Origin: an uncultured Bdellovibrionales bacterium
Lineage (GTDB): Bacteria; Patescibacteriota; Minisyncoccia; Moranbacterales; GWC2-37-73
NCBI GenBank assembly: GCA_964609855.1
Contig: CAZSTB010000005.1
Coordinates: 1,467 to 65,466 of the forward strand
Length of the DNA stretch: 64,000 nt
Reading direction: 5' to 3'
How positions within the stretch are numbered: position 1 is the stretch's first letter; each line of letters begins with the position of its first letter. The notes under the pieces are model-generated. The model did not search any database, was not told the DNA's origin, and was given only the letters and a program-made list of their open reading frames with translations. Of the stretch, positions 4,084 through 60,224 are shown in pieces. The translations under genes and the position numbers were made by a program.

Positions 4084-4506
4084 ATGCAGTGGTTTGGATT
4101 TGAAGTTCAATCGAGATTTGATGAATATTTTAATACCATTCACAATAAATTGAACTGGCTCATGGTGCTTTCTAAATTTTTTCGCAAAGACGAAATTAGA
4201 AAAGTGTTTGGTGGTGCTTATGTGCTGTGTCCCTTTCACAATGAAAACACTCCATCCATGCGCTTCTCTTTCATTGCTGACAACTTTCTTTGTTTTGGAT
4301 GTGGTTGCGGTGGAGATATTTTTTCTTTCATTAAGCGCATGGAGGGCGGCTCCTTTGAGGCTATGCTTTTCATAAGAAAATATTTTCAGATCCCTTTGCC
4401 ATTTACAAGAAAAGAGTGGCGAGCTATTAAAGCTGAGATAAGAAGAAGACAAGCAGAAAACATAAATTTATATCTGCAAGTAGTCTCAGCAGAAGATGAA
4501 AATTAA
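4084..4506 (+). CDS. Stand-alone CHC2-type zinc-finger protein (DnaG primase zinc-binding-domain-like), about 140 aa.
   Basis: CPFHNENTPSMRFSF...CFGCGCGGDIFSFIK matches the primase CHC2 zinc ribbon. Strong SD (AAGGAGGTG) 7 nt before the ATG at 4084. Confidence 0.6.
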   Translation: MQWFGFEVQSRFDEYFNTIHNKLNWLMVLSKFFRKDEIRKVFGGAYVLCPFHNENTPSMRFSFIADNFLCFGCGCGGDIFSFIKRMEGGSFEAMLFIRKYFQIPLPFTRKEWRAIKAEIRRRQAENINLYLQVVSAEDEN

Positions 4507-13988: not shown

Positions 13989-14049
13989 GTTTTAATTTAG
14001 TTTCTTAACATCACTGTCCCAGTGTGGACAAAAAAAGGAGAAAATATTC

Positions 14050-14253
14050 ATGAAAAGAGGATACTTTGTGGAGTCTTCCAATGTAGGCATGAAGGGTCGA
14101 GAGCAGGCAATGAATGAGCAAATAATGGAGGGGCAAACTGGAATAATGCAGTATGCTTCAATAAATAACAATGATTTTGTTGCAGAATTCTGCCCCTATG
14201 ATATGGGTTCAATTGCACTGAGGAGAATGCGCTTGAATAGATCCAGACGCTAG
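14050..14253 (+). CDS. Small hypothetical protein (67 aa) with a strong SD.
   Basis: AAGGAG about 10 nt before the ATG. First gene of a two-gene unit that ends at the terminator at 14509. Confidence 0.45.
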   Translation: MKRGYFVESSNVGMKGREQAMNEQIMEGQTGIMQYASINNNDFVAEFCPYDMGSIALRRMRLNRSRR

Positions 14254-14300
14254 CTTATTCATTGTCAAAGATAAGAAAACATTGAAAAAAGAGGTGAGCT

Positions 14301-14489
14301 ATGAATGCTGGGTATTCAGTGGAAGACACCCTTGAAGATCCCTATGATAAATTGCAAGCAGCTATTGAGCTGAAAAAAGAACTGCAAAGAGAAATTGCCA
14401 TTAATCATGATCCAAAATTGAAAGAACAATTTTTTAAGCAGGAAATGTTGGTAACTAGTTTAAAAAAGTCACTGCAATTGTGTTGGTAA
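14301..14489 (+). CDS. Small hypothetical protein (62 aa) with an SD.
   Basis: AGAGGTG 6 nt before the ATG. Followed by a strong terminator. Confidence 0.45.
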   Translation: MNAGYSVEDTLEDPYDKLQAAIELKKELQREIAINHDPKLKEQFFKQEMLVTSLKKSLQLCW

Positions 14490-14508
14490 AAATTGCTTCA
14501 ACCGGACA

Positions 14509-14543
14509 GGGGAAGTTGCGTATTGCGCAGCTTCCCCTTTTTT
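14509..14543 (+). terminator. Rho-independent terminator.
   Basis: ggggaagttgcg-tat-tgcgcagcttcccc followed by TTTTTT. Confidence 0.8.
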
Positions 14544-14597
14544 CTTGTAGTGGTATAATAAGATTATCGTTCGTAGATTTTTTTGATAAAAAACAAT

Positions 14598-15170
14598 ATG
14601 AAATTTAATAAAAATACATTCGAAATAATATTCTTTGCTCGCGGAGGACAGGGTGCAAAGACCGCTTCAGAACTTGTTGCGCACGGAGCAGTTTTGGAAG
14701 GAAAATATGTGAAAGCCTTTCCTTTTTTTGGACCAGAGCGTTCTGGTGCTCCAACAAAAATGTTTTTACGTATTTCTGAAAGCGAAATTCGCACACAAGA
14801 GCCGATTATTGATCCTGATGTTGTCGTGGTGATGGATGAAACTGTTTTGGACACGGATTACGTGACTGCCAGTTTAGCCAAAAATGAGTCCTTGATTATA
14901 AATTCAAAAAATAGTCCGAATGAAATTAGAAAAAAGATTTTACATTTTGAAGGTAAGATTCATGCCATAGATGCAACTGGAATTGCGATCAGAATTACTG
15001 GAAATGCCAACCCTAACATGGTACTTGTTGGACAGCTTATTAAGATTTCAGAAATTATAAAGCTTGAAAGTGCGGCGGAAATTTTTCGTGAAGTATTCAA
15101 TGAAAAATTAGGAAAAGATTTGACTGAAAAGAATATCAAAGCCATGGAGGAGGGATATGATGCGCTATAA
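14598..15170 (+). CDS. porG: Pyruvate/2-oxoacid:ferredoxin oxidoreductase gamma subunit.
   Basis: FFARGGQGAKTA signature. Operon context with delta, alpha and beta subunits. Confidence 0.8.
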   Translation: MKFNKNTFEIIFFARGGQGAKTASELVAHGAVLEGKYVKAFPFFGPERSGAPTKMFLRISESEIRTQEPIIDPDVVVVMDETVLDTDYVTASLAKNESLIINSKNSPNEIRKKILHFEGKIHAIDATGIAIRITGNANPNMVLVGQLIKISEIIKLESAAEIFREVFNEKLGKDLTEKNIKAMEEGYDAL

Positions 15171-15296
15171 GAAAATAATTTAGAATTCGGAATTTCGAAT
15201 AATATCTGAATTACATAACGTTTTAAAAATTCAAAATTTAATCATTAGAAATTCATTCAAAATTCAAAATTATAAATTCAAAATTTGTTAAATATT

Positions 15297-15587
15297 ATGG
15301 AAAAAGGAGGAATTATAACGCATGACCAAAGTAAAGCTCCAAAAACCGGAGACTGGAAATATTCGTCGCCAGTTATTGATGCTGCCAAATGTATCGGATG
15401 TAAGACCTGCGTACCGCATTGCCCTGAGGCAGTTATGGAAATGAGGGCGAGAGCTACTGAAGAAATTGAAATCAGTGGAAAAATTGGAAAGGAAAAGGAA
15501 ATCGTTGGGGTTGATATGGAATATTGTAAGGGTTGCGGCGTGTGTGCTCAAGTTTGTCCGGTTAAGGCCATAAATATGAAAAAGTAA
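15297..15587 (+). CDS. porD: Pyruvate:ferredoxin oxidoreductase delta subunit (2x[4Fe-4S] ferredoxin).
   Basis: CIGCKTCVPHCP and CKGCGVCAQVCP cluster motifs. Confidence 0.8.
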   Translation: MEKGGIITHDQSKAPKTGDWKYSSPVIDAAKCIGCKTCVPHCPEAVMEMRARATEEIEISGKIGKEKEIVGVDMEYCKGCGVCAQVCPVKAINMKK

Positions 15588-15600
15588 ACTTTTTTCATAT

Positions 15601-15630
15601 TTAGTATCCAGTATATGGTATCCTGTATGG
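15601..15630 (+). repeat. Heptamer-periodic array (..TAGTA|TCCAGTA|TATGGTA|TCCTGTA..), left flank of the four-helix-bundle pseudogene.
   Basis: 7-bp periodicity ending in GTA. Inverted relative to 16005-16038 (tttGGTA x4 on the opposite strand). Confidence 0.5.
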
Positions 15631-16001
15631 AATACAAAAATTCAAAAATACAGTCGTTTACTGATCTAGAAGCCTGGAGAGAGGGTCATAGATTAGTATT
15701 GGGTATTTATAGGATATCGCAAAAATTTCCAAAAGAAGAAATTTATGGTTTGGTTAGTTAGATGAGAAGGTGTTCAGTTTCCATAACCTCTAATATTGCT
15801 GAAGGTTTCAGTAGGAATACCGTAAAGGATAAGTATCAATTTTATTGTGTAGCACATGGTTCGCTGACTGAATTGCAAAATCAATTATTGATTGCTCGTG
15901 ATATAAAATATTTGGAAAAAGCTGAGTTTGATAAAATTGCTTCGCAAACAATCACAGTAACAAAATTACTTAATGGTTTAAAGAGAATTAAAAATCAATG
16001 A
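15627..16001 (+). pseudogene. Four-helix-bundle protein gene (TIGR02436-type, '23S rRNA intervening-sequence protein' family) disrupted by a 1-nt insertion near 15718 and an in-frame TAG (at a conserved Gln) near 15760.
   Basis: Upstream frame reads MEYKNSKIQSFTDLEAWREGHRLVLGIYRIS. The downstream frame reads ...QKFPKEEIYGLVS*MRRCSVSITSNIAEGF, which aligns with the intact paralog at 55314-55676 (...FPKTEQYGIISQMRRAAVSIPSNIAEG). Confidence 0.7.
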
Positions 16002-17191
16002 AAAAAATACCAAATACCAAATACCAAATACTAAATACCCATCGCGTTCGCGCGATGAATGGTGGTTATGCAGTGGCGGAAGCTTTTCGTCAAATTCACC
16101 CTGATGTGATGGCGGTATATCCGATTACGCCGCAAACCACGATCATAGAAACCTATGCGAAAATGAAAGCTGACGGACTAGTTGCGACGGAGATTATCCA
16201 AGCTGAATCCGAGCATTCAGCCATGAGCGCAACAATTGGAGCTTGCAGTGCGGGGGCGCGAGCAGTGACAGCTTCAAGCTCGCAAGGAATTTTACATATG
16301 GCGGAAACTTTGCCGGTAGTGAGTGGCCTAGGTCTTCCTATTGTGATGGCTGTAAGTTCTAGAGCGCTTTCCGCACCGCTTAATATCCATGGCGAGCATG
16401 GAGATGTGATGGCTGTGCGCGACATGGGCTGGATTCAGATTTTTGCTGAGCAGGCGCAAGATGCATATGATAACACTATAATTGCCCTCAGGTTGGCTGA
16501 AAAAGCGGGGGTGCCAGTTATGCCGATTATGGATGGATTCCATACCTCACACACTACAGAGCGCGTGGAGATGATTGAAGATGAAATTATCCGGACTTTT
16601 GTCGGTGATTTTGCGCCCGAGCAAAAACTAACGGATTTTGAGGACCCTATCACACTTGGAACCTTGGCGCTGCAAAACACTTATTTTGAATTTAAAGTTG
16701 AGCAAGAAAAGAGGATGGAAAAAGCCAAATCTGAATATGTGAAAATTTGCAGTGAGTATGCAAAAATTTCTGGAAGAAAACATGGTCTTTTTGAATCCTA
16801 CAAAATGAAAGATGCTCAAGAGGTTATTGTGATGATGGGTGCAACTGCAGGCACAGCTAAAGATGTTGTGGATGCATTGCGCGAAAAAGGCAAAAAAGTT
16901 GGACTCTTGAAAATAAATTTATATAGACCCTTTCCCTATAAAGAAGTTGGCAATGAGCTTGCGCACATCAAGAAAATTGCAGTATTGGATCGCGCTATTT
17001 CATTCGGCGCTTACCCGCCGCTCTATCAAGACATAGTAATTGCTATGCAACATGCTGGCAGCCGTAAGCATGAAGTTTCCAGTTATATTTATGGACTCGG
17101 TGGACGAGATACGATGCAAAAAGATATCGAAAAAGTTTACAATGATTTAGAGGAGGGAGAGATTTCTAACAAAATAAAATACCTAAAGTAA
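15998..17191 (+). CDS. porA: Pyruvate:ferredoxin oxidoreductase alpha subunit. The N-terminal 16 aa are encoded by the heptamer array; the functional start may be the internal Met near 16049.
   Basis: ...YPITPQTTIIE motif of PorA. ATGA overlap with the upstream ORF stop. Confidence 0.8.
   Translation: MKKIPNTKYQILNTHRVRAMNGGYAVAEAFRQIHPDVMAVYPITPQTTIIETYAKMKADGLVATEIIQAESEHSAMSATIGACSAGARAVTASSSQGILHMAETLPVVSGLGLPIVMAVSSRALSAPLNIHGEHGDVMAVRDMGWIQIFAEQAQDAYDNTIIALRLAEKAGVPVMPIMDGFHTSHTTERVEMIEDEIIRTFVGDFAPEQKLTDFEDPITLGTLALQNTYFEFKVEQEKRMEKAKSEYVKICSEYAKISGRKHGLFESYKMKDAQEVIVMMGATAGTAKDVVDALREKGKKVGLLKINLYRPFPYKEVGNELAHIKKIAVLDRAISFGAYPPLYQDIVIAMQHAGSRKHEVSSYIYGLGGRDTMQKDIEKVYNDLEEGEISNKIKYLK
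16005..16038 (+). repeat. Heptamer tandem repeat (ccaaata)x4-5, right flank of the pseudogene cassette. Translated as KIPNTKYQILNT at the annotated PorA N-terminus.
   Basis: ataccaaataccaaataccaaatactaaatacc. Confidence 0.6.
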
Positions 17192-17283
17192 TTTTATTTT
17201 TTAATTTACAATGATCAATTTACAATTTACAATTAAATATCAATTACACAATGTAAAATGAAAATTTTGAAAATTCAATGAAA

Positions 17284-17307
17284 ATTGAAAATTGTGAATT
17301 GAAAATT
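17284..17307 (+). promoter_or_regulatory. Conserved 24-mer ATTGAAAATTGTGAATTGAAAATT directly upstream of porB. Identical copy at 48808-48831, related copy near 58807-58840.
   Basis: Exact 24-nt identity between two unlinked intergenic loci. Confidence 0.5.
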
Positions 17308-17315
17308 ATTTAAAT

Positions 17316-18224
17316 ATGAACAAAGAACTTACAAAAAAATTATCAGCCGGGCACGCGACATGCGCAGGCTGTGGAATTCCGGCAATTGTGCGCACAATCT
17401 TAGGTGCAACTGACGAGCCCGTGATCATTTCCAATGCAACTGGTTGCTTGGAGGTGACGACAACAATTTATCCCTCGACTGCCTGGAAAGTTCCTTATAT
17501 CCACAGCGTCTTTGGAAACGCCAGTGCAACAGCAGCTGGCATAGATGCTGCACAAAAAGCTTTAGAGAAAGCCGGCAAGATTTCCAAGAAAGCTAAAATT
17601 GTTGTTTTTGGAGGAGATGGCTCAACATATGATATCGGTTTGCAATCACTTTCTGGCGCACTCGAAAGAGGGCATGATTTTCTTTACGTTTGTTATGATA
17701 ATGGCGGCTACATGAACACTGGAGGACAAAGGTCTGGGGCAACCCCCTATGGCGCAACAACGGAAACGGCCCCTGCAGGATTGGAATCTTTTGGAAAAAC
17801 CCAACAGCGAAAAGACTTGATGGAGATCGTCAATGCCCATGGCATCAAATATTTAGCACAGGCTAATGTTGCGAATCTTGTTGATCTTAAACGTAAAGCT
17901 GAAAAAGCTTTTAATACTCCAGGTCCTTCATTTTTGTTGGTCTTGCAGCCGTGCACTCAAATTTGGAAATTTCCAACTTCGCAGTATGTTGCGATTGGAA
18001 AATTAGCTACGGAAACAAATTTCTGGCCATTGTATGAAATCGACAATGGAAAATATATTATAAATACTGTCCCAAAAGAAAGAAAGTCAATTGAAGAGTT
18101 TCTGAAAACCCAAGGACGCTTCAAGCATTTATTTGCTGAAAAAAATAAGGCCATAATTGAAGAAATTCAAAAAATGGTTGATAAAAATTGGGAAAAATTA
18201 TTGAGAAAAACTGAAATACAATAG
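17316..18224 (+). CDS. porB: Pyruvate:ferredoxin oxidoreductase beta subunit (TPP-binding).
   Basis: CAGCGIPAI and GGDG thiamine-diphosphate motifs. Confidence 0.85.
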   Translation: MNKELTKKLSAGHATCAGCGIPAIVRTILGATDEPVIISNATGCLEVTTTIYPSTAWKVPYIHSVFGNASATAAGIDAAQKALEKAGKISKKAKIVVFGGDGSTYDIGLQSLSGALERGHDFLYVCYDNGGYMNTGGQRSGATPYGATTETAPAGLESFGKTQQRKDLMEIVNAHGIKYLAQANVANLVDLKRKAEKAFNTPGPSFLLVLQPCTQIWKFPTSQYVAIGKLATETNFWPLYEIDNGKYIINTVPKERKSIEEFLKTQGRFKHLFAEKNKAIIEEIQKMVDKNWEKLLRKTEIQ

Positions 18225-19496: not shown

Positions 19497-19567
19497 GCGT
19501 ATCTTGTGTCTCGTATCTTGTATTTCATATGAATACAGGATGCTAAATACAAAATACTGAATACGAA

Positions 19568-20322: not shown

Positions 20323-21421
20323 ATGAAAGAAATTATTGAAAAACTTGAAGTGCTAAAAGCTAAACTCCCGCTCCTGCGGGACTATCTTTGACGTTGTAAG
20401 AAAGACGAGGAGAATTTCTGAACTCGAAGTAGCAGTTTCAGAGACTGGGTTTTGGAACGATCCACAACAGGCCGCAAAAGTTTCCAAGGAATTGGAATTT
20501 TTGAAAAATGAAATCCTCGCCATTGAAGAGGCTGAAGTGAAACTTAACGAGCTCCTTGAACTTTCAAGCATGTACGATTCCTTTTCTGATGTTGAACAAG
20601 CAGAAATTCGTAAGCAAATTGAAGAAGTCCAAAAAGAAATTGAGGCATTGGAATTTAAATCACTTCTTGGCGGAGAATATGATAAGAACGATGTAATTTT
20701 AGCGATTCGTGCTGGAGCAGGCGGCGTAGATGCGCAGGATTGGGCGATGATGTTGGAGCGTATGTTTTTAAGGTGGGCAGAAAAAAATAATTTCCAAACT
20801 AGGATATTGGATGAAACTCGCGGAGGCGAAGCTGGAATTAAGAGTGCGACAATTGAAATTTCTGGTTTTTATGCTTACGGATATCTCCAAAGTGAGGCAG
20901 GTGTTCATCGACTTGTTAGACTTTCGCCATTTAATGCTGATAACTTAAGGCAGACTTCTTTTGCGATTGCAGAAGTTCTGCCAATAATTGAAGAAATTGC
21001 CCAAGTGCATATTCAGCCGCAGGACTTAGTTATTGATACCTATCGGGCATCCGGAGCTGGTGGCCAACACGTTAATACTACCGACAGCGCAGTTCGTATC
21101 ACGCACGTTCCCACAGGTATTGTCGTTACCTGCCAAAGCGAACGTTCACAGCTTCAAAACAAGGAGCAAGCAATGAAAGTTCTCAAAGCGCGTATTCATC
21201 AGCGTTACCTGGAAGAGCAGGAGGCGGAAAAACAAAAATTGCGGGGTGAATATAAGAGCGCTGACTGGGGAAATCAGATCAGGTCTTACGTGCTTCATCC
21301 ATATAAGATGGTTAAGGATCATCGTACAAAACATGAAACAAGCGATGCGGAGAAAGTTTTGGATGGCGATTTGAACGAATTTATGGAGAGTTATTTGCGC
21401 TGGCAAGCTAATGAAAAATAG
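20323..21421 (+). CDS. prfB: Peptide chain release factor 2, requiring a programmed +1 ribosomal frameshift at CTT TGA C (20386-20392). ORF0 is 20323-20391; the +1 frame continues from 20390 to 21421.
   Basis: ORF0 is MKEIIEKLEVLKAKLPLLRDYL*. The +1 frame continues DVVRKTRRISELE... through SPF and GGQ motifs. The classic RF2 autoregulatory site CUU UGA C is present. Confidence 0.9.
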
Positions 21422-25168: not shown

Positions 25169-25295
25169 AAGGTATTAACCCCGGGGCAAGCCCTGACCCT
25201 CGCATGTAACGAGATACCTGCCTGCCCTGTCTACCGATAGGCAGGCGGTAGGTAGTAAAACGAAAATTCATTTTCGCTTCGCTTGATAATAAAAA
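25167..25295 (+). repeat. Composite intergenic repeat R2 (+ orientation): module A, module C (tacctgcctgccctgtctaccgataggcaggcggtagg), module B.
   Basis: Ends match R1 and R3. The middle matches the reverse complement of 28700-28760. Confidence 0.8.
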
Positions 25296-25302
25296 TCACC
25301 AA

Positions 25303-25328
25303 CAGCTCCTAGTGAGCTGTTTTTTTTG
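25303..25328 (+). terminator. Rho-independent terminator.
   Basis: cagctc-ctagt-gagctg followed by T9. Confidence 0.8.
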
Positions 25329-25389
25329 TTTCTATTTTTTTGTTTTTACGCTAAGATAAATTAATGAACAGAATTAATGATAAAAAAAG

Positions 25390-28617: not shown

Positions 28618-28621
28618 GTGA

Positions 28622-28790
28622 GTTGTAATATTTAATAAGCTCGCAGCTCCGGACGCAAATTTTTCTCGGCATGATTATTTTATTGTCAGTGAAGTCGAGC
28701 AAAGCAAAATGAATTTTTGTTTCTTGCCTACCGCCAGCCTATCCGTGACGGGGCAGGTAGCCATAAGTGAGCTATGACATCAAATAGTAT
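28622..28790 (-). repeat. Composite intergenic repeat R4 (- orientation, more degenerate): module B' (catgattattttattgtcagtgaa...gcaaagcaaaatgaattttt) plus module C'. Module A is degenerate.
   Basis: Reverse complement aligns to R2 (ctgccccgtcacggataggctggcggtagg; gaaaaattcattttgctttgctcgac). Confidence 0.65.
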
Positions 28791-28889
28791 TTATTTGCAT
28801 TTTGAATTTTTTTACGTTAGTATCAATATATATTTTAAAAAATGTTCTTTCGCAATGCGACTATAAATTCAAATCATAGGAGGTGTAGT

Positions 28890-40626: not shown

Positions 40627-40630
40627 AATG

Positions 40631-40706
40631 CAGGAATTAGCTAGTAGGATTTAGCTTGTAGCAAACAGCTTTCCTGATTCCTAACTCCTAATTCCTAACT
40701 CCTGAT
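40631..40706. repeat. Inverted pair of heptamer arrays with no cargo: caggaat|tagctag|taggatt|tagcttg|tagc ... loop ... cctgattcctaactcctaattcctaactcctgatt. Predicted long imperfect hairpin.
   Basis: 7-bp periodicity (TAGNNNN / NNNNCTA). The right array is the reverse complement of AGGAGTTAGGAATTAGGAGTTAGGAATCAGG, matching the arrays at 55307 and 57070. Confidence 0.55.
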
Positions 40707-40734
40707 TTTTAATATTTAATACTACAACGTTAGT

Positions 40735-42885: not shown

Positions 42886-42915
42886 TCTATCAGATAAACT
42901 CCTAGTAATGGGAGT

Positions 42916-43052
42916 TTATTATCAAGCGAAGCGAGCGAAATGAAAAATTAATATTTTCCATTTCCGAGCAAGTGTAGATATCAAAAGGTATAATACCTCG
43001 CAGCTCTGCCCCAAAGGGTCCAGGGCTCTGCCCTGGGGTATGATACCTTTTA
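42916..43052 (-). repeat. Composite intergenic repeat R3 (- orientation), closest relative of R1.
   Basis: Reverse complement: aaaggtatcataccccagggcagagccctggaccc...ggtattataccttttgatatc...tttcatttcgctcgcttcgcttgataataaa. Confidence 0.85.
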
Positions 43053-43076
43053 TTTTTTTGAATAAATTTATGCTTA

Positions 43077-48717: not shown

Positions 48718-48807
48718 AAGGCTCAAAATAACCAATTTTCAATAATCAATTCTCAATTCACAATGAATTTTCAATTTTCAATTTTTTAATTGCAAATTCT
48801 GGTTTTA

Positions 48808-48831
48808 TTGAAAATTGTGAATTGAAAATTG
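48808..48831 (+). promoter_or_regulatory. Second copy of the conserved 24-mer ATTGAAAATTGTGAATTGAAAATT, about 25 bp upstream of the rplU promoter.
   Basis: Identical to 17284-17307. Confidence 0.5.
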
Positions 48832-48857
48832 GAAATTCTGGCAAAATGCCTTTGTAC

Positions 48858-48886
48858 TTGACTTTATTTGCCAGTTTAGGTATACT
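48858..48886 (+). promoter_or_regulatory. sigma70-like promoter TTGACT-17-TATACT for rplU.
   Basis: ttgactttatttgccagtttaggtatact. Confidence 0.55.
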
Positions 48887-48916
48887 TATTTAGTAACAAT
48901 TATCTATATTAATGAC

Positions 48917-50911: not shown

Positions 50912-51010
50912 ATGGGGCAGCTTATTAGGTTTTTAGCTTCTTAGCTTTTTAGGAATAACTTAGTACTTTGCTGAAAAGCTAAGAAGCTACTGCCTGAAAA
51001 GCTGTTAAAA

Positions 51011-52414: not shown

Positions 52415-52814
52415 ATTAAAAAGGTTTTAGCATCCAGTTAGCAGCTGTTAGCTTTAAAAAATCATATTTATCCGAAAGCTAAAAGTCGAAAGCTTAAAGC
52501 TAATATATTATAGCAACTGTGCAGGGGTTAGCAACCATGGAAAGCTGGCATTTGTGCACGATTTGCGCACATATTGACAAAATAATAAAAAAATAGCAAT
52601 ACGATGTTCCTTAAGGTAATATTTCAAATTTTTCAGCACGAAACATTTTTTCAAAAAAGGGGATATCTTGAAGCAGAAGTTACTGAGAAACTAGCAATTC
52701 AGTAACATTAAGAAAAAGGATCATATGCAATCTTACTGGACTAGATTTAGAATATTTATAAATTGCATGAAAATGGATTGAATTTGCAACACCAGATCAA
52801 ATAATTTATTCCAC

Positions 52815-52888
52815 TTTGTCATCCTCAGCTTGACTGGGGATCCAGAGCCCTGCCTAGCCCTGGATTCTCGTTTACACGGGAATGACAT
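52815..52888. mobile_element. MITE-like element TTGTCATCC...CGGGAATGACA (about 74 bp) in the long non-coding region upstream of dnaB.
   Basis: Terminal inverted repeats match those at 34561-34621 and 60051-60121. Confidence 0.5.
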
Positions 52889-53042
52889 AGGAGGTTATTT
52901 GATTTTGCAAGGTTTGGATATGGCTAACGAAAGAAGCTTGGAACGTTTTGATAATTACTTTTCTTAAATTTTATTTGAGCATACGATTATCTGAAAAACT
53001 TAACCAAAATGAATCCCTACAGCCATATTGCGTATGATTCTA

Positions 53043-53079
53043 AAAGGCAGGAGTCGTAACTGATGACTCCTGCCTTCTA
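53043..53079. terminator. Hairpin terminator-like structure.
   Basis: aggcaggagtc-gtaactgat-gactcctgcct. Confidence 0.5.
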
Positions 53080-53178
53080 ATTTATCGTGTTGACTCATTG
53101 ATTTAAAGAAGATAAACTAAAAATCATTGATAGTTGTTTACCAATCTATCGGCATTTGCCGAAAAAGGAGCGTGTGAA

Positions 53179-53870: not shown

Positions 53871-55301
53871 TTAGGAAGCTGGCTTTATCTTTGGTCCTTC
53901 GCTTGTATCTTCGACCACGAAGCCATGTTTTTCAATAAGTGCTCTGAGTTCGTCTGATTTTTTGAAATCTTTTTGATCTCTGGCAGCTTCGCGTTTTTGC
54001 ATGAGTTCTTTCACTTCTGTAGGAATTTCTGCTTGACCCTGTAGGATGAGTCCAAAGACGCTATTCATTCTGTTCCAGAGCGACAAAATTTTCTTGGCAT
54101 CCTCGGAGCTGATGTCCTCATTGGTTTGGCGAATATTGAATTCGGTTATAAGTTCATAGAGTTGACTTAATGCAAGCGGAGTGTTGAGGTCATCATCTAA
54201 GGCGCTCTCAAATTTTTCCTTGTGAGATGTGATTTCAAATTCTTTGGCGCTTGGTTTTTCTGATTTGGCTAAAATTTCTAAATTCAAAATGAAATCATTA
54301 ATTTTTTGCAAGTTCTTATGAGCTTGCATTATGGCATCCCAAGAAAAATCCATTTGAGAACGGTAATGCGATGAAAGGAATAGGACCCTCAGATCCATCG
54401 GTGAAAAACCTTTCTCAATGATGTCTTCAAGTTTGTATAAATTACCCTTGGATTTGCTCATTTTTTCTCCATTCATCAAGAGATGGCGACCATGAATCCA
54501 GAATCGGACATATTTTTTTCCGGTGAAGCATTCAGTTTGTGCAATTTCTGCTTCATGATGCGGGAAGATGTTATCTTCGCCACCAGTGTGAATATCAATG
54601 GTTGAACCGAGGTATTCCGTGCTCATGGCGCTGCATTCAATATGCCAGCCTGGATAACCGATTGACCATGGAGAATGCCATTTTAAAAGATGGGCTTCAG
54701 GCGCTTTGAGCCAAAGTGCGAAATCCCAGGGATTTCTTTTGTCTGGATGTTCTTCGAGGCGAGCTCCTACTTTTAAATTTTCCAGCGTATTGCCAGAAAG
54801 TTTTCCGTATTCTTCAAATTTGGTCACATCAAAAAATACATTGCCATTCACTTCGTAAGCGTAGCCTTTTTCAATCAGTCCTTCGATTATTTTAATCATT
54901 TGCGGAACGTGCTTGGTGGCGCGTGGGAAATATTGAGCAGGCAAAATATTCAATTGTTTTTCAACATCCTTAAAATATTCCTCATAAAATCTGGCTATTT
55001 CTTCAGGGGTCTTTTTTTCAGCTAAAGCAGCCTTAAGCATCTTATCTTCGCCAGCATCACCTTGGGCAATATCATCAGCGGTAAGATGTCCGACATCGGT
55101 AATGTTTTTGATTTGTCGAACTTCATAGCCAATGTATTCCAAATAGCGTCTTACGATATCAGAAAGTAGGTAGGCACGAATATTACCAATGTGCACAAAG
55201 CCGTAAACTGTGGGACCGCAAGTATACATCCCAACCTTACCGGGATTAAGCGACTCAAATTCTTCCTTTTGTTTGGAGTAGGTATTGTAAATCTTTAACA
55301 T
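53871..55301 (-). CDS. cysS: Cysteine--tRNA ligase.
   Basis: Class I motifs: HIGN (HIGH variant), KMSKS, and zinc-binding Cys residues. Confidence 0.9.
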   Translation of the reverse strand: MLKIYNTYSKQKEEFESLNPGKVGMYTCGPTVYGFVHIGNIRAYLLSDIVRRYLEYIGYEVRQIKNITDVGHLTADDIAQGDAGEDKMLKAALAEKKTPEEIARFYEEYFKDVEKQLNILPAQYFPRATKHVPQMIKIIEGLIEKGYAYEVNGNVFFDVTKFEEYGKLSGNTLENLKVGARLEEHPDKRNPWDFALWLKAPEAHLLKWHSPWSIGYPGWHIECSAMSTEYLGSTIDIHTGGEDNIFPHHEAEIAQTECFTGKKYVRFWIHGRHLLMNGEKMSKSKGNLYKLEDIIEKGFSPMDLRVLFLSSHYRSQMDFSWDAIMQAHKNLQKINDFILNLEILAKSEKPSAKEFEITSHKEKFESALDDDLNTPLALSQLYELITEFNIRQTNEDISSEDAKKILSLWNRMNSVFGLILQGQAEIPTEVKELMQKREAARDQKDFKKSDELRALIEKHGFVVEDTSEGPKIKPAS

Positions 55302-55306
55302 AGGCG

Positions 55307-55340
55307 TTAGGAATTAGGAGTTAGGTTGTAGGGATGAGGA
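55307..55340 (+). repeat. Heptamer array TTAGGAA|TTAGGAG|TTAGGTT|GTAGGGA|TGAGGAT, left flank of the intact four-helix-bundle gene. Overlaps its last codons.
   Basis: Strict 7-bp periodicity. Inverted relative to 55727-55759. Confidence 0.7.
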
Positions 55341-55676
55341 TAATTTATTTAGCATCCTCATTATTTCCTGTAGTAAGCAATCAATTGCTTTATACTTCAT
55401 TGGGTCAGAATAATTCAATCTTTTTGTGATTTCTATCTGCGTTTCAAGTTCTGATCCACTACCGTAAGCAATTATTAAAAAATGCCTGAATTCTTTTCTG
55501 CTGCTTCTTCTGCGGCCTTCAGCTATGTTTGAAGGGATAGAAACGGCAGCACGTCTCATTTGAGATATGATGCCATATTGTTCAGTTTTTGGAAAGTCCT
55601 CGGTTAGTTTGTATATTTCCAAGACCAAATCCATGGATTTTTGCCAAACAATTAGGTCTTTGTATGAAGTTATCAT
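55314..55676 (-). CDS. Four-helix-bundle protein (TIGR02436-type; the family first found in 23S rRNA intervening sequences), intact copy.
   Basis: ITSYKDLIVWQKSMDLVLEIYKLTEDFPKTEQYGIISQMRRAAVSIPSNIAEG matches the family core. Confidence 0.75.
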   Translation of the reverse strand: MITSYKDLIVWQKSMDLVLEIYKLTEDFPKTEQYGIISQMRRAAVSIPSNIAEGRRRSSRKEFRHFLIIAYGSGSELETQIEITKRLNYSDPMKYKAIDCLLQEIMRMLNKLSSSLQPNS

Positions 55677-55726
55677 GAGGATATGGAATTTGAATATTTA
55701 CTTCTAATTCTTTATGCTGGTAATAA

Positions 55727-55759
55727 GCTACAACCTAATTCCTACAACCTAAATCCTTA
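55727..55759 (-). repeat. Heptamer array, right flank (reverse complement AGGATTTAGGTTGTAGGAATTAGGTTGTAGC). Forms an inverted pair with 55307-55340 around the gene.
   Basis: gctacaacctaattcctacaacctaaatcctta on the + strand. Confidence 0.7.
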
Positions 55760-55765
55760 TAGATA

Positions 55766-56668
55766 CTATAGCCAATTTTTGAATTTGAATATTATAAAAG
55801 TTGAAATTGCGATGGCGGCCATTGCTCCAACATGAATCCAGAAAAGTGTTGGATTATTGGAGATGCTAGCACTCATAGAGATGATGCTGGAGTACAGCGT
55901 CAAAAGAAATATGATTATTGAAAAAGTTGTCAGAACTTTCATTGTGAAATCCAGTTTGTTTGAAAGCAGGGAATTGTTAGTTTCCTCCATAGATTCAATT
56001 GTTTCTTTATTGCTTTCCAGCGCATTCCAGATGCGGATGTTTGTGCCAGCCAAGTTTTGAAAATATGGCGCAAGGTCAGATGGAATCAGCTCAGTTTTCA
56101 TTTGAGCCAAAGATTCAATGATGTGTCGTTGAGGTTTCAGAGTTCTTCTGAAATTCAAAATATCACGCTTCACAATGGAAATTTCAAAAACCATTTCTTT
56201 TTCATTTTCGTTAAAAACCTGCTCCTCAATGTTAAGAAGTTTTTCATGAATATGGTCGATTCTTGGAAAACAGGAATCAAGCAGCATTTCCAGAATGCTG
56301 TAAAGTAGATGCGATGGACTTTGACTCATGAAAATTCGCCTTTTCCCTTCACTGGCTTCCAGTTCTGCGAAAAAACTGTCCAATTCAAGTATTTCCTTAT
56401 TGTGTCCTGTAATGAGATGATCCTTGGTAATCACAATGTCTAATTCTCCTGGATAAGTCGTTCTTATTTTCGTATCGTAAAGCGGGATGTGAATTGTCAG
56501 AAAAACACAATTATTGTAAAGAGTAGCTTTTGCTCGATAGGTTGGCGTAGCAAATTCTTCGATGGCAATTGGATGGATATCAAAATTTTCCTGCAAATAA
56601 AGTACATCGTCCGCGCTAGGATCCGAAAAGTCTGTCCAGGTTATATTTTTGAATGTTACTTGTTTCAT
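55766..56668 (-). CDS. CorA-like divalent cation transporter family protein. Divergent; the canonical GMN motif is not evident.
   Basis: About 300 aa: cytoplasmic domain plus two C-terminal TM helices, as in CorA/ZntB. Confidence 0.45.
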   Translation of the reverse strand: MKQVTFKNITWTDFSDPSADDVLYLQENFDIHPIAIEEFATPTYRAKATLYNNCVFLTIHIPLYDTKIRTTYPGELDIVITKDHLITGHNKEILELDSFFAELEASEGKRRIFMSQSPSHLLYSILEMLLDSCFPRIDHIHEKLLNIEEQVFNENEKEMVFEISIVKRDILNFRRTLKPQRHIIESLAQMKTELIPSDLAPYFQNLAGTNIRIWNALESNKETIESMEETNNSLLSNKLDFTMKVLTTFSIIIFLLTLYSSIISMSASISNNPTLFWIHVGAMAAIAISTFIIFKFKNWL

Positions 56669-57074: not shown

Positions 57075-57180
57075 GTCGTAGGAAGTAGGTGGTAGGATGA
57101 AACTGGAATTATGAATTAGGCTGTGGGAATGATGTGGTAGGATTTAGGAATTAGGTGGTGGGTTGTGGTGATTAAAATTG
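57070..57180 (+). repeat. Two direct heptamer arrays (GCAGGAG|TTAGGTC|GTAGGAA|GTAGGTG|GTAGGAT ... TAGGATT|TAGGAAT|TAGGTGG|TGGGTTG|TGGTGAT).
   Basis: 7-bp periodic TAGG repeats in the same orientation. No cargo ORF between them. Confidence 0.55.
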
Positions 57181-57280
57181 GATTATTTATATATAAGCGG
57201 TAGTTTTTTAAAAATATGGAATGTGAAAATGGTAAATAAATCAAGTTTATAAATTATAGAAACATACTAGGAGGTAAGCG

Positions 57281-57463
57281 ATGGAAAATTGCGACGGAAA
57301 AGTAATAAACATGAAATGTCTCGGTTGCCAATTTCTTCCTTTGTGTTTGGAGGAAAAGGTGTTTTCAAAGGAGTTGGATGGAGATAAGGAAAAGTTGATC
57401 TTGAACTCTTGTCCGAAAACGGAAAAGGGCGATGGTCACATCGCTTGTTGTTGCTGCGATTAA
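57281..57463 (+). CDS. Cys-rich small protein (60 aa, 9 Cys, C-terminal ACCCCD) with a strong SD.
   Basis: AGGAGG 8 nt before the ATG. CxxC-type spacing in several places. Confidence 0.45.
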   Translation: MENCDGKVINMKCLGCQFLPLCLEEKVFSKELDGDKEKLILNSCPKTEKGDGHIACCCCD

Positions 57464-57557
57464 TGCATGATTACATATTCAAAAACAAGGAGGTGAAACT
57501 TGGTGAATTTTAAATTTTCCATTGGAATGTAACCTTAACCTGTAAAAGGAGTGATTT

Positions 57558-58708: not shown

Positions 58709-58845
58709 ATAATTTTCAATGCTCAATTCTCAATTTTCATTGAATTTTCAAATCATAATTATTGATAATGCATCTGTTTAAGAACTTTTTCATTGTAAAT
58801 TGATTGTGAATTGAAAACTGTAAATTGAAAATTGATATTAAATTT

Positions 58846-59774: not shown

Positions 59775-60050
59775 GGCACACCTCTTGAATTCATTGTTAA
59801 CGTACTAACGAGTATAGATTTTATATCACATATCATGTTCATTGTCAAGTACCGGGAAATAAAAAAAACCCGCATGGGCATTTGTTGAAATATCCCGCAC
59901 GGGCGAGCAGGCAAGCGCTGTGCCAAGCTCTGGATTCAGTATACAACGCACAATAGACAATATGCAACAGACAAAAGACAAAAGACAACATGCAAAATAC
60001 AACAGTCAAATGTAAAATACAACAACTACAATTCTAAACATGCAGGCACA

Positions 60051-60121
60051 TTGTCATTCCCATGAAAATGGGAATCCAGGTTCGAGAGAATCCACGGATT
60101 ATAAATTCATGGGAATGACAA
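60051..60121. mobile_element. MITE-like element TTGTCATTCC...GGGAATGACAA upstream of dnaK.
   Basis: 10-bp terminal inverted repeats. Internal hairpin attcccatgaaaatgggaat. Confidence 0.55.
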
Positions 60122-60224
60122 TAAAAATTAAATAATTTAATAAATTATAAAATCCTATTGGAATTACTATTTGTACATTTGTAAATTTGTAATAGATTTG
60201 TAATTTCGTAGGAGCAAAAAGAAT

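Follow-up and report, generated by a model that had tools for sequence, protein, structure and literature searches.

Between porD and porA of the four-subunit pyruvate/2-oxoacid:ferredoxin oxidoreductase (PFOR) operon of a Candidatus Moranbacteria genome, a member of the Candidate Phyla Radiation (CPR), lies a four-helix-bundle gene enclosed by inverted arrays of 7-nt repeats, and the question raised by this locus is what kind of element this is. The stretch of DNA analyzed, referred to here as the window, is 64 kb long with 38% GC, and all statements about copy number in this genome refer to these 64 kb. An earlier note on the same DNA had described a decayed cassette in the order porG-porD-cassette-porA-porB. 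Pfam and NCBIfam profile searches uphold this order (porG/C, porD, the four-helix-bundle gene, porA, porB). The analysis suggests that the locus is probably an intervening sequence (IVS)-type cassette, which consists of a PF05635/TIGR02436 'S23p' gene inside inverted arrays of 4–5 heptamers and which resides in an mRNA operon.

IVS elements and their S23p proteins are regarded as an oddity of rRNA genes. They have been known since the early 1990s and, to our knowledge, neither a function nor a mode of spread has been accepted for them; an IVS of Leptospira was reportedly described by Ralph and McClelland in 1993. The helix-45 IVS of Coxiella burnetii is 428 nt long and features a 28-bp terminal stem that is cut by RNase III, and 2–3 heptamers adjoin the ATG of its S23p gene (PMC4990558). 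The por cassette follows the design of the 23S rRNA IVS, a likeness that the earlier note overlooked: it is ~430–440 nt long, has a stem of ~28–31 bp, and carries the same protein family in the loop. Heptamer units of variable copy number abut the start of the open reading frame (ORF), the element occurs sporadically among related strains, and ORFs of this kind are often knocked out. Inverted heptamer arms are also found in an Azospirillum copy placed by Rfam inside a 23S rRNA gene, where they are of the GGACAGA type. Unlike the rRNA IVSs, the por cassette is located in a protein-coding operon instead of an rRNA helix, and its 3' arm appears to be translated within the downstream gene. Additionally, most carriers show purifying selection on the ORF, in contrast to the S23p gene of Coxiella, which is thought to be unexpressed.

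The four-helix-bundle gene and its stop codon

The cassette protein, queried with a Gln put back at codon 45, matches PF05635 with 123.5 bits (cutoff 33.8; residues 13–117 on profile positions 2–106) and TIGR02436 with 111.9 bits (cutoff 24), which supports the earlier identification of a four-helix-bundle gene between porD and porA. The closest solved structure by sequence similarity is that of the pentameric XCC0516 protein from Xanthomonas (PDB 2GSC, E=2.9e-21). The bAvd protein of diversity-generating retroelements is a distant four-helix-bundle homologue (PF22296 E=5e-6, NF033474 E=4e-4). An Avd identity was rejected, as the scores of 27.4 and 20.6 bits fall below the respective cutoffs of 40 and 80 and the neighbours are por genes. 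No reverse transcriptase family was found among the genes called beside the carriers that were looked up, and no template or variable repeats were noticed there.

In place of an unbroken ORF of ~110–130 codons, the window copy has 124 codons in one frame that are interrupted by a TAG at codon 45. The earlier note had reported two lesions, of which one does not exist: no 1-nt insertion is present near 15718, where the reading frame is continuous and the alignment with 11 orthologues has no gaps. The other, an in-frame TAG at a conserved Gln, is borne out by the comparison with orthologues and the paralogue, all 8 of which have Gln at this position, encoded by CAG or CAA in the orthologues, with CAG in the closest of them. 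Reassignment of TAG was ruled out, both by these codons and by the use of TAG as the terminator of 14 of the 66 long ORFs. A canonical programmed +1 frameshift site, CTT TGA C at 20386 in the release factor 2 gene prfB, indicates that TGA is a stop and that the standard code is used. The prfB region (20323–20491) reads MKEIIEKLEVLKAKLPLLRDYL followed by this stop, with the main ORF at 20492–21421.

Orthologues were sought with PorA as the query, which gave ~25 por operons from Candidatus Moranbacteria and Patescibacteria with PorA identities of 66–88%. The four-helix-bundle gene is located exactly at the porD–porA junction in 8 of these operons and is intact in 7 of the 8. A protein search returned 5471 homologues at E<1e-20, and all four HB1-like proteins that were sampled from these and placed on long contigs, which are 121–124 residues in length, also map to this junction. 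In total, at least 12 Moranbacteria/Patescibacteria por operons other than that of the window hold an intact orthologue there, of 121–124 codons and in 7 cases of exactly 124. The 7 intact orthologues of the scan and the window copy are all exactly 372 nt long. Pairwise dN/dS (the ratio of nonsynonymous to synonymous divergence) of the cassette gene ranges from 0.05 to 0.17 and is 0.098 between the window and the relative L022; all carriers of an intact orthologue keep the arms. The constant ORF length and the low dN/dS indicate that the protein is likely functional in this lineage. As the orthologues found at this junction have unbroken frames and evolve under purifying selection, the TAG of the window appears to be a single recent CAG to TAG nonsense mutation. 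The designation of the gene as a decayed pseudogene in the earlier note is therefore correct for one lesion and too strong as a description of the cassette.

Inverted arms and the start of porA

The flanking arrays of 7-nt periodicity described previously were recovered by an inverted-repeat search as two 31-nt arms (15598–15628 and 16007–16037) that are 77% complementary, and a tandem-repeat score gives the right arm 5 copies of AAATACC at 92%. RNAduplex calculations determined a pairing energy of −20.7 kcal/mol compared to −7.2 ± 2.2 kcal/mol for shuffled arms, of which 0 of 1000 paired as well; among real 50-nt tiles of the window, 24 of 1279 pair as strongly as the arms do. Both the minimum free energy (MFE) fold and the centroid fold of the window cassette show the arms closing the ORF. 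The arms of the window and the 7 scanned orthologues pair with −22 to −30 kcal/mol, with those of the window the weakest of the 8 (−22.3 kcal/mol), and the arms of four further carriers likewise pair. The 31-nt arms, the folds, and the conservation in 12 orthologues are thus consistent with the terminal inverted repeats and the ~25–30-bp enclosing stem of an IVS. The arm sequences co-vary by group: one group has ACCAAAT, another ATACAAA, and L023 and L024 carry a GTAGAAT variant in both arms. RNAalifold recovered the long-range stem from 12 cassettes with 95.8% of cells paired, and compensatory changes on this stem occupy 10 cells versus 3.7 ± 1.4 in shuffles (0 of 500 as high). These results show that the complementarity of the arms is maintained while their sequence drifts. 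The ATAC-containing repeats within the first codons of the gene are able to pair locally with the left arm, which the MFE and centroid folds present as an alternative to the long-range stem. Additionally, seven carriers preserve the GC-rich hairpin that abuts the right arm, through compensatory substitutions: it reads CATAGCG/CGCTATG in L022 and AGCGCG/CGCGCT in L018, and it is also kept in L016, L012, L021, and L065.

From its first codon at 15998, the porA ORF runs across the right array as MKKIPNTKYQILNT, in agreement with the earlier note, which had described this array as fused to the porA start. In all carriers the porA frame extends without interruption through the arm, which differs in length and sequence, to an ATG located at or near the cassette stop. 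This ATG overlaps the stop (ATGA) in the window and in L016, L018, L022, L063, and L065, and gene callers place the PorA start so that it either overlaps the cassette stop by 4 nt or follows it by 10 nt. The alternative internal start, which had been placed near 16049, is Met20 at 16055. The equivalent codon is CTG in L018, TTA in L021, and TTG in L012 and L023, and two relatives have no usable internal porA start. Because the frame is open in all carriers and Met20 is not kept in these four relatives, the right arm appears to be translated as a PorA N-terminus of K-Y-Q-I-P-N-T-type repeats, and it seems to have been recruited as the 5' coding end of porA. The conserved PorA domain begins near residue 17, and cassette-free relatives also feature a K/N/T-rich extension of 10–20 residues before it. 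A Shine-Dalgarno-like tetramer is found upstream of only 5 of the 46 long genes of the window, whose leaders are A/T-rich, so the absence of such a motif at the porA start is uninformative. The view that the insertion is old and shapes both the porD–porA junction and the start of porA is upheld.

The proposed mechanism is that the cassette would be co-transcribed with the por operon and that its arms would pair as a ~30-bp stem in which two start codons are buried: that of the cassette gene, contained in the final unit of the left arm, and that of porA, which abuts the right arm. This stem may be a substrate for RNase III, as in the rRNA IVSs, or it may act as a translational gate that sets the output of PorA and PorB relative to PorG and PorD. 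A ribosome terminated by the TAG might resume translation at the ATG directly behind it (TAGATG), and any polar effect on porA would thereby be kept small. Unlike in an rRNA IVS, plain excision by RNase III would remove the porA start codon, and a gating or coupling role is for this reason weighted at least as highly as excision.

Occurrence, descent and rival explanations

The earlier note had pointed to the porD–porA junction of relatives as a check on the insertion; the outcome was mixed, as the cassette and its arrays are present in about one third of the relatives in the genome scan and absent from the others. Such sporadic presence at the same site among close relatives (8 of ~25) is characteristic of an IVS. 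L018, which carries the cassette, and L008, which is without it, are 89% identical over 7.9 kb, and L016 is 83% identical to the cassette-free L013 and L014. In these pairs the exchanged segment runs from the porD stop to the 'ALNGGY' of PorA, and no direct-repeat footprint was seen at its borders. In L017 the ORF and the left arm are missing; what is retained is the inner part of the right arm including the start codon of PorA, identical to L023 at 40 of 44 positions. A short right-arm remnant was seen by eye in L010, which a follow-up alignment did not show clearly, and L011 has an internally deleted copy. The right-arm remnants at some empty sites indicate loss by deletion. The motif 'tttttcata' located 3' of the porD stop is present in cassette-free relatives as well.

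Synonymous divergence (dS) differs among groups of carriers. In the pairs L023/L024 and L012/L021 the cassette dS agrees with that of porA. In the group of the window, L022, and L018 the cassette is much less diverged than the surrounding por genes: for the window and L022, dS amounts to 0.41 in the cassette, and the synonymous sites of porA are saturated (a proportion of differing synonymous sites, pS, of 0.81), and nucleotide identity is 82–94% over 15560–16090 versus ~70–76% in the por genes. Because of this low divergence relative to the flanks, we read the history of the cassette as lateral replacement now and then, combined with vertical descent and loss. The route of replacement is probably homologous recombination via the flanking por genes in a homing-like manner. 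The cassette resembles homing elements, the endonuclease genes carried by introns or inteins, in its same-site patchiness, its lower divergence than the flanks, and its cycle of gain, inactivation, and loss; unlike them, it encodes a protein without a nuclease or splicing domain, and its spread would depend on flanking homology. A neighbour-joining tree of PorA comprises 132 columns and is too weak for counting gains versus losses. In the carrier L063, none of the por junctions is empty. Between porG and porD (1739–2125) lies a GxxExxY/PDDEXK_3 (TIGR04256) ORF, and a second, divergent four-helix-bundle ORF is located between porA and porB (4109–4459), each with its own inverted periodic arms.

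The link between the gene family and heptamer arrays was studied in a metagenome scan with an alignment of four-helix-bundle proteins as the query, which gave 80 loci of 40–70% identity and 32–63% GC. Periods 4–11 were compared in 60-nt flanks (n=67 metagenomic PF05635 flanks). The best-scoring period is 7 for 69% of the flanks on the upstream side and for 64% of those on the downstream side, compared to 16% of other spacer tiles at the same loci and 8% of coding sequence. The two flanks of a locus pair on average with −31 kcal/mol versus −19 kcal/mol for mismatched loci. Clean arrays have a median of 4–4.5 units, and half of them lie within 5 nt of a start or stop codon. In 44 of 47 loci the gene upstream has the same orientation as the four-helix-bundle gene, versus a background of 69%, which fits elements that ride on host transcripts. 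Individual examples include Nostoc punctiforme, in which (GAGTCAG)n abuts the ATG of a four-helix-bundle gene, and Riemerella, with inverted AACCTTG arrays. On a plasmid of Picosynechococcus sp. PCC 7003 (L154, 1192–1548), a four-helix-bundle gene with inverted period-8 arms separates cas10/cmr2 from cmr3 in a type III-B CRISPR operon. A literature search of incomplete coverage found no paper that links the PF05635 family in general to inverted heptamer arrays.

Several observations weigh against an IVS-type cassette in an mRNA operon. The fold of the whole cassette has a z-score of only −1.5, and the covariation is confined to one heptamer, as unvarying GUAU/AUAC cores make up most of the pairs. 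No asymmetry between sense and antisense strands was seen in the duplex energies or the G-U counts of 77 cassettes, which makes selection at the RNA level and at the DNA level indistinguishable, and selection on the arms could act on DNA instead of RNA. Co-transcription, formation of the stem in vivo, and processing by RNase III are all features that we infer, and no signature motif of an RNase III gene was found in the window. Cleavage within the stem would detach the porA start, so simple IVS-style excision would harm the operon. Many of the period-7 segments of the window are ORF-less hairpins, and the arms may be a feature of the host spacers into which the gene has merely been placed. Lastly, the low divergence of the cassette could partly result from nucleotide-level constraint instead of transfer.

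Four other explanations were weighed against the IVS-type cassette. The protein could be a domesticated operon member that assists or regulates PFOR or its mRNA, derives from an ancient insertion, is inherited vertically and repeatedly lost, and has arms that form a regulatory hairpin for translational coupling. The strict synteny in many genomes, the purifying selection on the cassette gene, the ATGA overlap with porA, and the deletion remnants at empty sites agree with this explanation. It is nonetheless judged rather unlikely, as the same family with arms is found in unrelated contexts (the 23S rRNA gene, cmr2/cmr3, and between the ORFs at 55766–56668 and 53871–55301), close relatives manage without the cassette, the dS of the cassette is discordant with that of porA, and the other por junctions of L063 hold the second four-helix-bundle ORF and the GxxExxY ORF. 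Persistence of a dead, decaying pseudogene with a frameshift and a stop, retained only as spacer structure, would account for the in-frame TAG, for the window arms being the weakest of the 8, and for the internal deletion in L011. This is improbable, because there is no frameshift, which already largely refutes the explanation for that lesion, the ORF length is exactly kept, and the window–L022 dN/dS indicates that nearly all of the divergence accrued under selection.

The TAG itself might be a sequencing or assembly error or a minority polymorphism, with the gene intact in the population. The codon differs from the orthologues by a single C to T change, and the supporting assemblies all come from one run series (SRR446575–7). 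An assembly error had also been left as a way out in the earlier note; however, an independent Logan assembly of SRR446576 repeats the TAG allele and is identical over 14533–17308 (2.8 kb), which makes this explanation highly improbable. It is hardly likely that the arrays are generic intergenic filler, slippage-prone AT-rich spacers unrelated to the gene. The 13 period-7 segments of the window, nearly all intergenic and many of them ORF-less hairpins, and the other heptamer arrays that cassette-free relatives often carry at the same junction point in this direction, but 7-periodicity is ~4-fold enriched beside PF05635 genes versus other spacers in unrelated metagenomic loci (GC 32–63%), and the arm sequence is conserved along with the gene across species.

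Other features of the window and the wider family

The features of the por locus and of the second cassette are given in Table 1. The mechanical porD ORF opens at TTG 15285; the likely start is the ATG at 15298, on the basis of an N-terminus (MEKGGII...) common to relatives. The last unit of the left arm holds the cassette ATG (..cctGTATG). Consensus scans for a promoter or terminator belonging to the cassette were at chance level, and the sole clear terminator found is located at 14508–14538, upstream of porG. An Rfam gathering scan of the window yielded only tRNA-Thr and no known RNA family for the cassette.

Table 1. Coordinates of the por operon, the parts of its cassette, and the paralogous cassette in the window.
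Feature	Position	Strand	Basis or remark
porG/porC, gamma subunit of 2-oxoacid:ferredoxin oxidoreductase	14583-15170	+	PF01558 E=3e-35; TIGR02175 184.6 bits
porD, delta (2x[4Fe-4S]) subunit	15298-15587	+	TIGR02179 80 bits; Fer4 families
13-bp perfect hairpin across the porD stop codon (TAAATATGAAAAA / TTTTTCATATTTA)	15571-15603	+	inverted-repeat search
Left arm, four 7-nt units (nnnnGTA)	15598-15628	+	inverted repeat; GUAU cores conserved in 12 cassettes
Four-helix-bundle gene (23S rRNA-IVS protein / TIGR02436 family), 124 codons, one frame, TAG at codon 45	15627-16001	+	
ATAC-containing repeats within the first codons of the four-helix-bundle gene	15631-15652	+	tandem-repeat row; MFE and centroid folds
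In-frame TAG for an invariant Gln (CAG in L022)	15759-15761	+	conserved Met46 codon directly 3' (TAGATG)
porA, alpha subunit	15998-17191	+	PF01855, PF17147; NF040682 aligned from residue 17
Right arm, five AAATACC units, complementary to the left arm; predicted PorA residues 3-14	16005-16039	+	
GC-rich UUCG-type hairpin CATCGCG-TTCG-CGCGATG, porA codons 15-20	16040-16057	+	abuts right arm
porB, beta subunit	17316-18224	+	NF008819 346 bits
Intact paralogous cassette	55302-55757	-	four-helix-bundle gene 55314-55676; TTAGGnn-type inverted arms 55302-55331 and 55728-55757

The earlier note had treated the por cassette as one of two copies of the same kind, and the paralogue (four-helix-bundle gene at 55314–55676) agrees with this: its protein is 40% identical to that of the por cassette, and it has its own inverted arrays, built from a different heptamer. 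A dispersed repeat resembling a miniature inverted-repeat transposable element or a repetitive extragenic palindrome was rejected as an identity for the cassette, as the only two copies in the 64 kb differ to this extent in protein and arms and no target-site footprint was seen in the pairs of relatives with and without the por cassette. The paralogous cassette is located between a 300-aa ORF (55766–56668) and a 476-aa ORF (53871–55301) that we take to be cysS from its sequence. Searches of the window by tblastn with HB1, the second four-helix-bundle protein of L063, and the GxxExxY protein returned the two known cassettes only, and they were also negative for the apparently non-coding stretches of 400–720 nt at 14001–14582, 52415–53133, 57075–57557, and 1917–2324, which are present in an otherwise compact genome.

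The 13 period-7 segments of the window compare with 0.1 expected in shuffles. ORF-less hairpins of 7-nt periodicity, which were overlooked in the earlier note, are common in the spacers of this genome. Inverted periodic hairpins without an ORF are located at 19497–19567, 40627–40734, 48718–48916, 17192–17315, 15171–15284, 58709–58824, 59927–60224, and 50912–51010 (period 8). The hairpin at 19497–19567 has GTAT-type units like the arms of the por cassette, and that at 40627–40734 has CCTAA-type units like the arms of the paralogue; the ORF-less hairpins look like 'solo-arm' versions of cassettes. The porG–porD spacer (15209–15295) and the porA–porB spacer (17231–17317) share a repeat-rich segment of 87 nt that is 72% similar. 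Its motif TGAAAATTGTGAATTGAAAATTG is found again at 48807–48837, with a similar stretch at 58792–58820, and takes the form tgaaaattgtgaattgaaaattg in the porD–porA spacer of the relative L005, which suggests a dispersed family of spacer elements. Unusually GC-rich, strongly structured spacers at 25169–25389, 28618–28841, and 42886–43076 share motifs including GGGGCA, GCAGGTAG, and CTACCGCC and have no Rfam match. Two Logan contigs from short-read assemblies of the same organism (L001 and L002) break at the repeat-rich porA–porB spacer and start 31 nt upstream of porB. Heptamer arrays fragment CPR assemblies at operon junctions.

Intergenic heptamer tandem repeats, the short tandemly repeated repetitive (STRR) sequences and the TAACTGA repeats, have been reported from cyanobacteria, Beggiatoaceae, and Bacteroidetes (PMC4679880). 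They are similar to the arrays described here in that they are short, are confined to spacers, often end at a start codon, and vary in copy number, and the taxa that carry them overlap with those rich in PF05635 genes. Unlike the STRR and TAACTGA repeats, which are direct and defined by their sequence, the por-type arrays are inverted, differ in sequence from cassette to cassette, and enclose an ORF. The text on the TAACTGA repeats makes no mention of 'four helix' or 'S23' (PMC4679880).

A broader proposal, which we put forward tentatively as a possibility, is that PF05635 genes, perhaps together with the GxxExxY/PDDEXK_3 genes, and inverted arrays of 4–5 heptamers make up a single, widespread class of selfish elements embedded in transcripts, which would have colonized rRNA helices and operon spacers in CPR bacteria, Cyanobacteria, Bacteroidota, and Proteobacteria. 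As a pentamer, the protein would attach to the approximately five units of its own array and in this way govern the pairing of the stem, cleavage by RNase III, or the translation of the protein itself. The ORF-less hairpins, and possibly the STRR arrays, may be stripped-down derivatives of such elements.

The por cassette would extend the IVS design into an mRNA operon, where it is conserved and under selection across many CPR genomes, and an essential metabolic enzyme appears to have taken over one of the repeat arms as its start. For annotation, this would mean that N-terminal extensions of the PorA type and assembly breaks at CPR por junctions stem from heptamer arrays. The link between PF05635 genes and heptamers may provide a testable handle on the ligand of the protein, on the origin of intergenic heptamers, and on the remodelling of operon junctions in reduced genomes.

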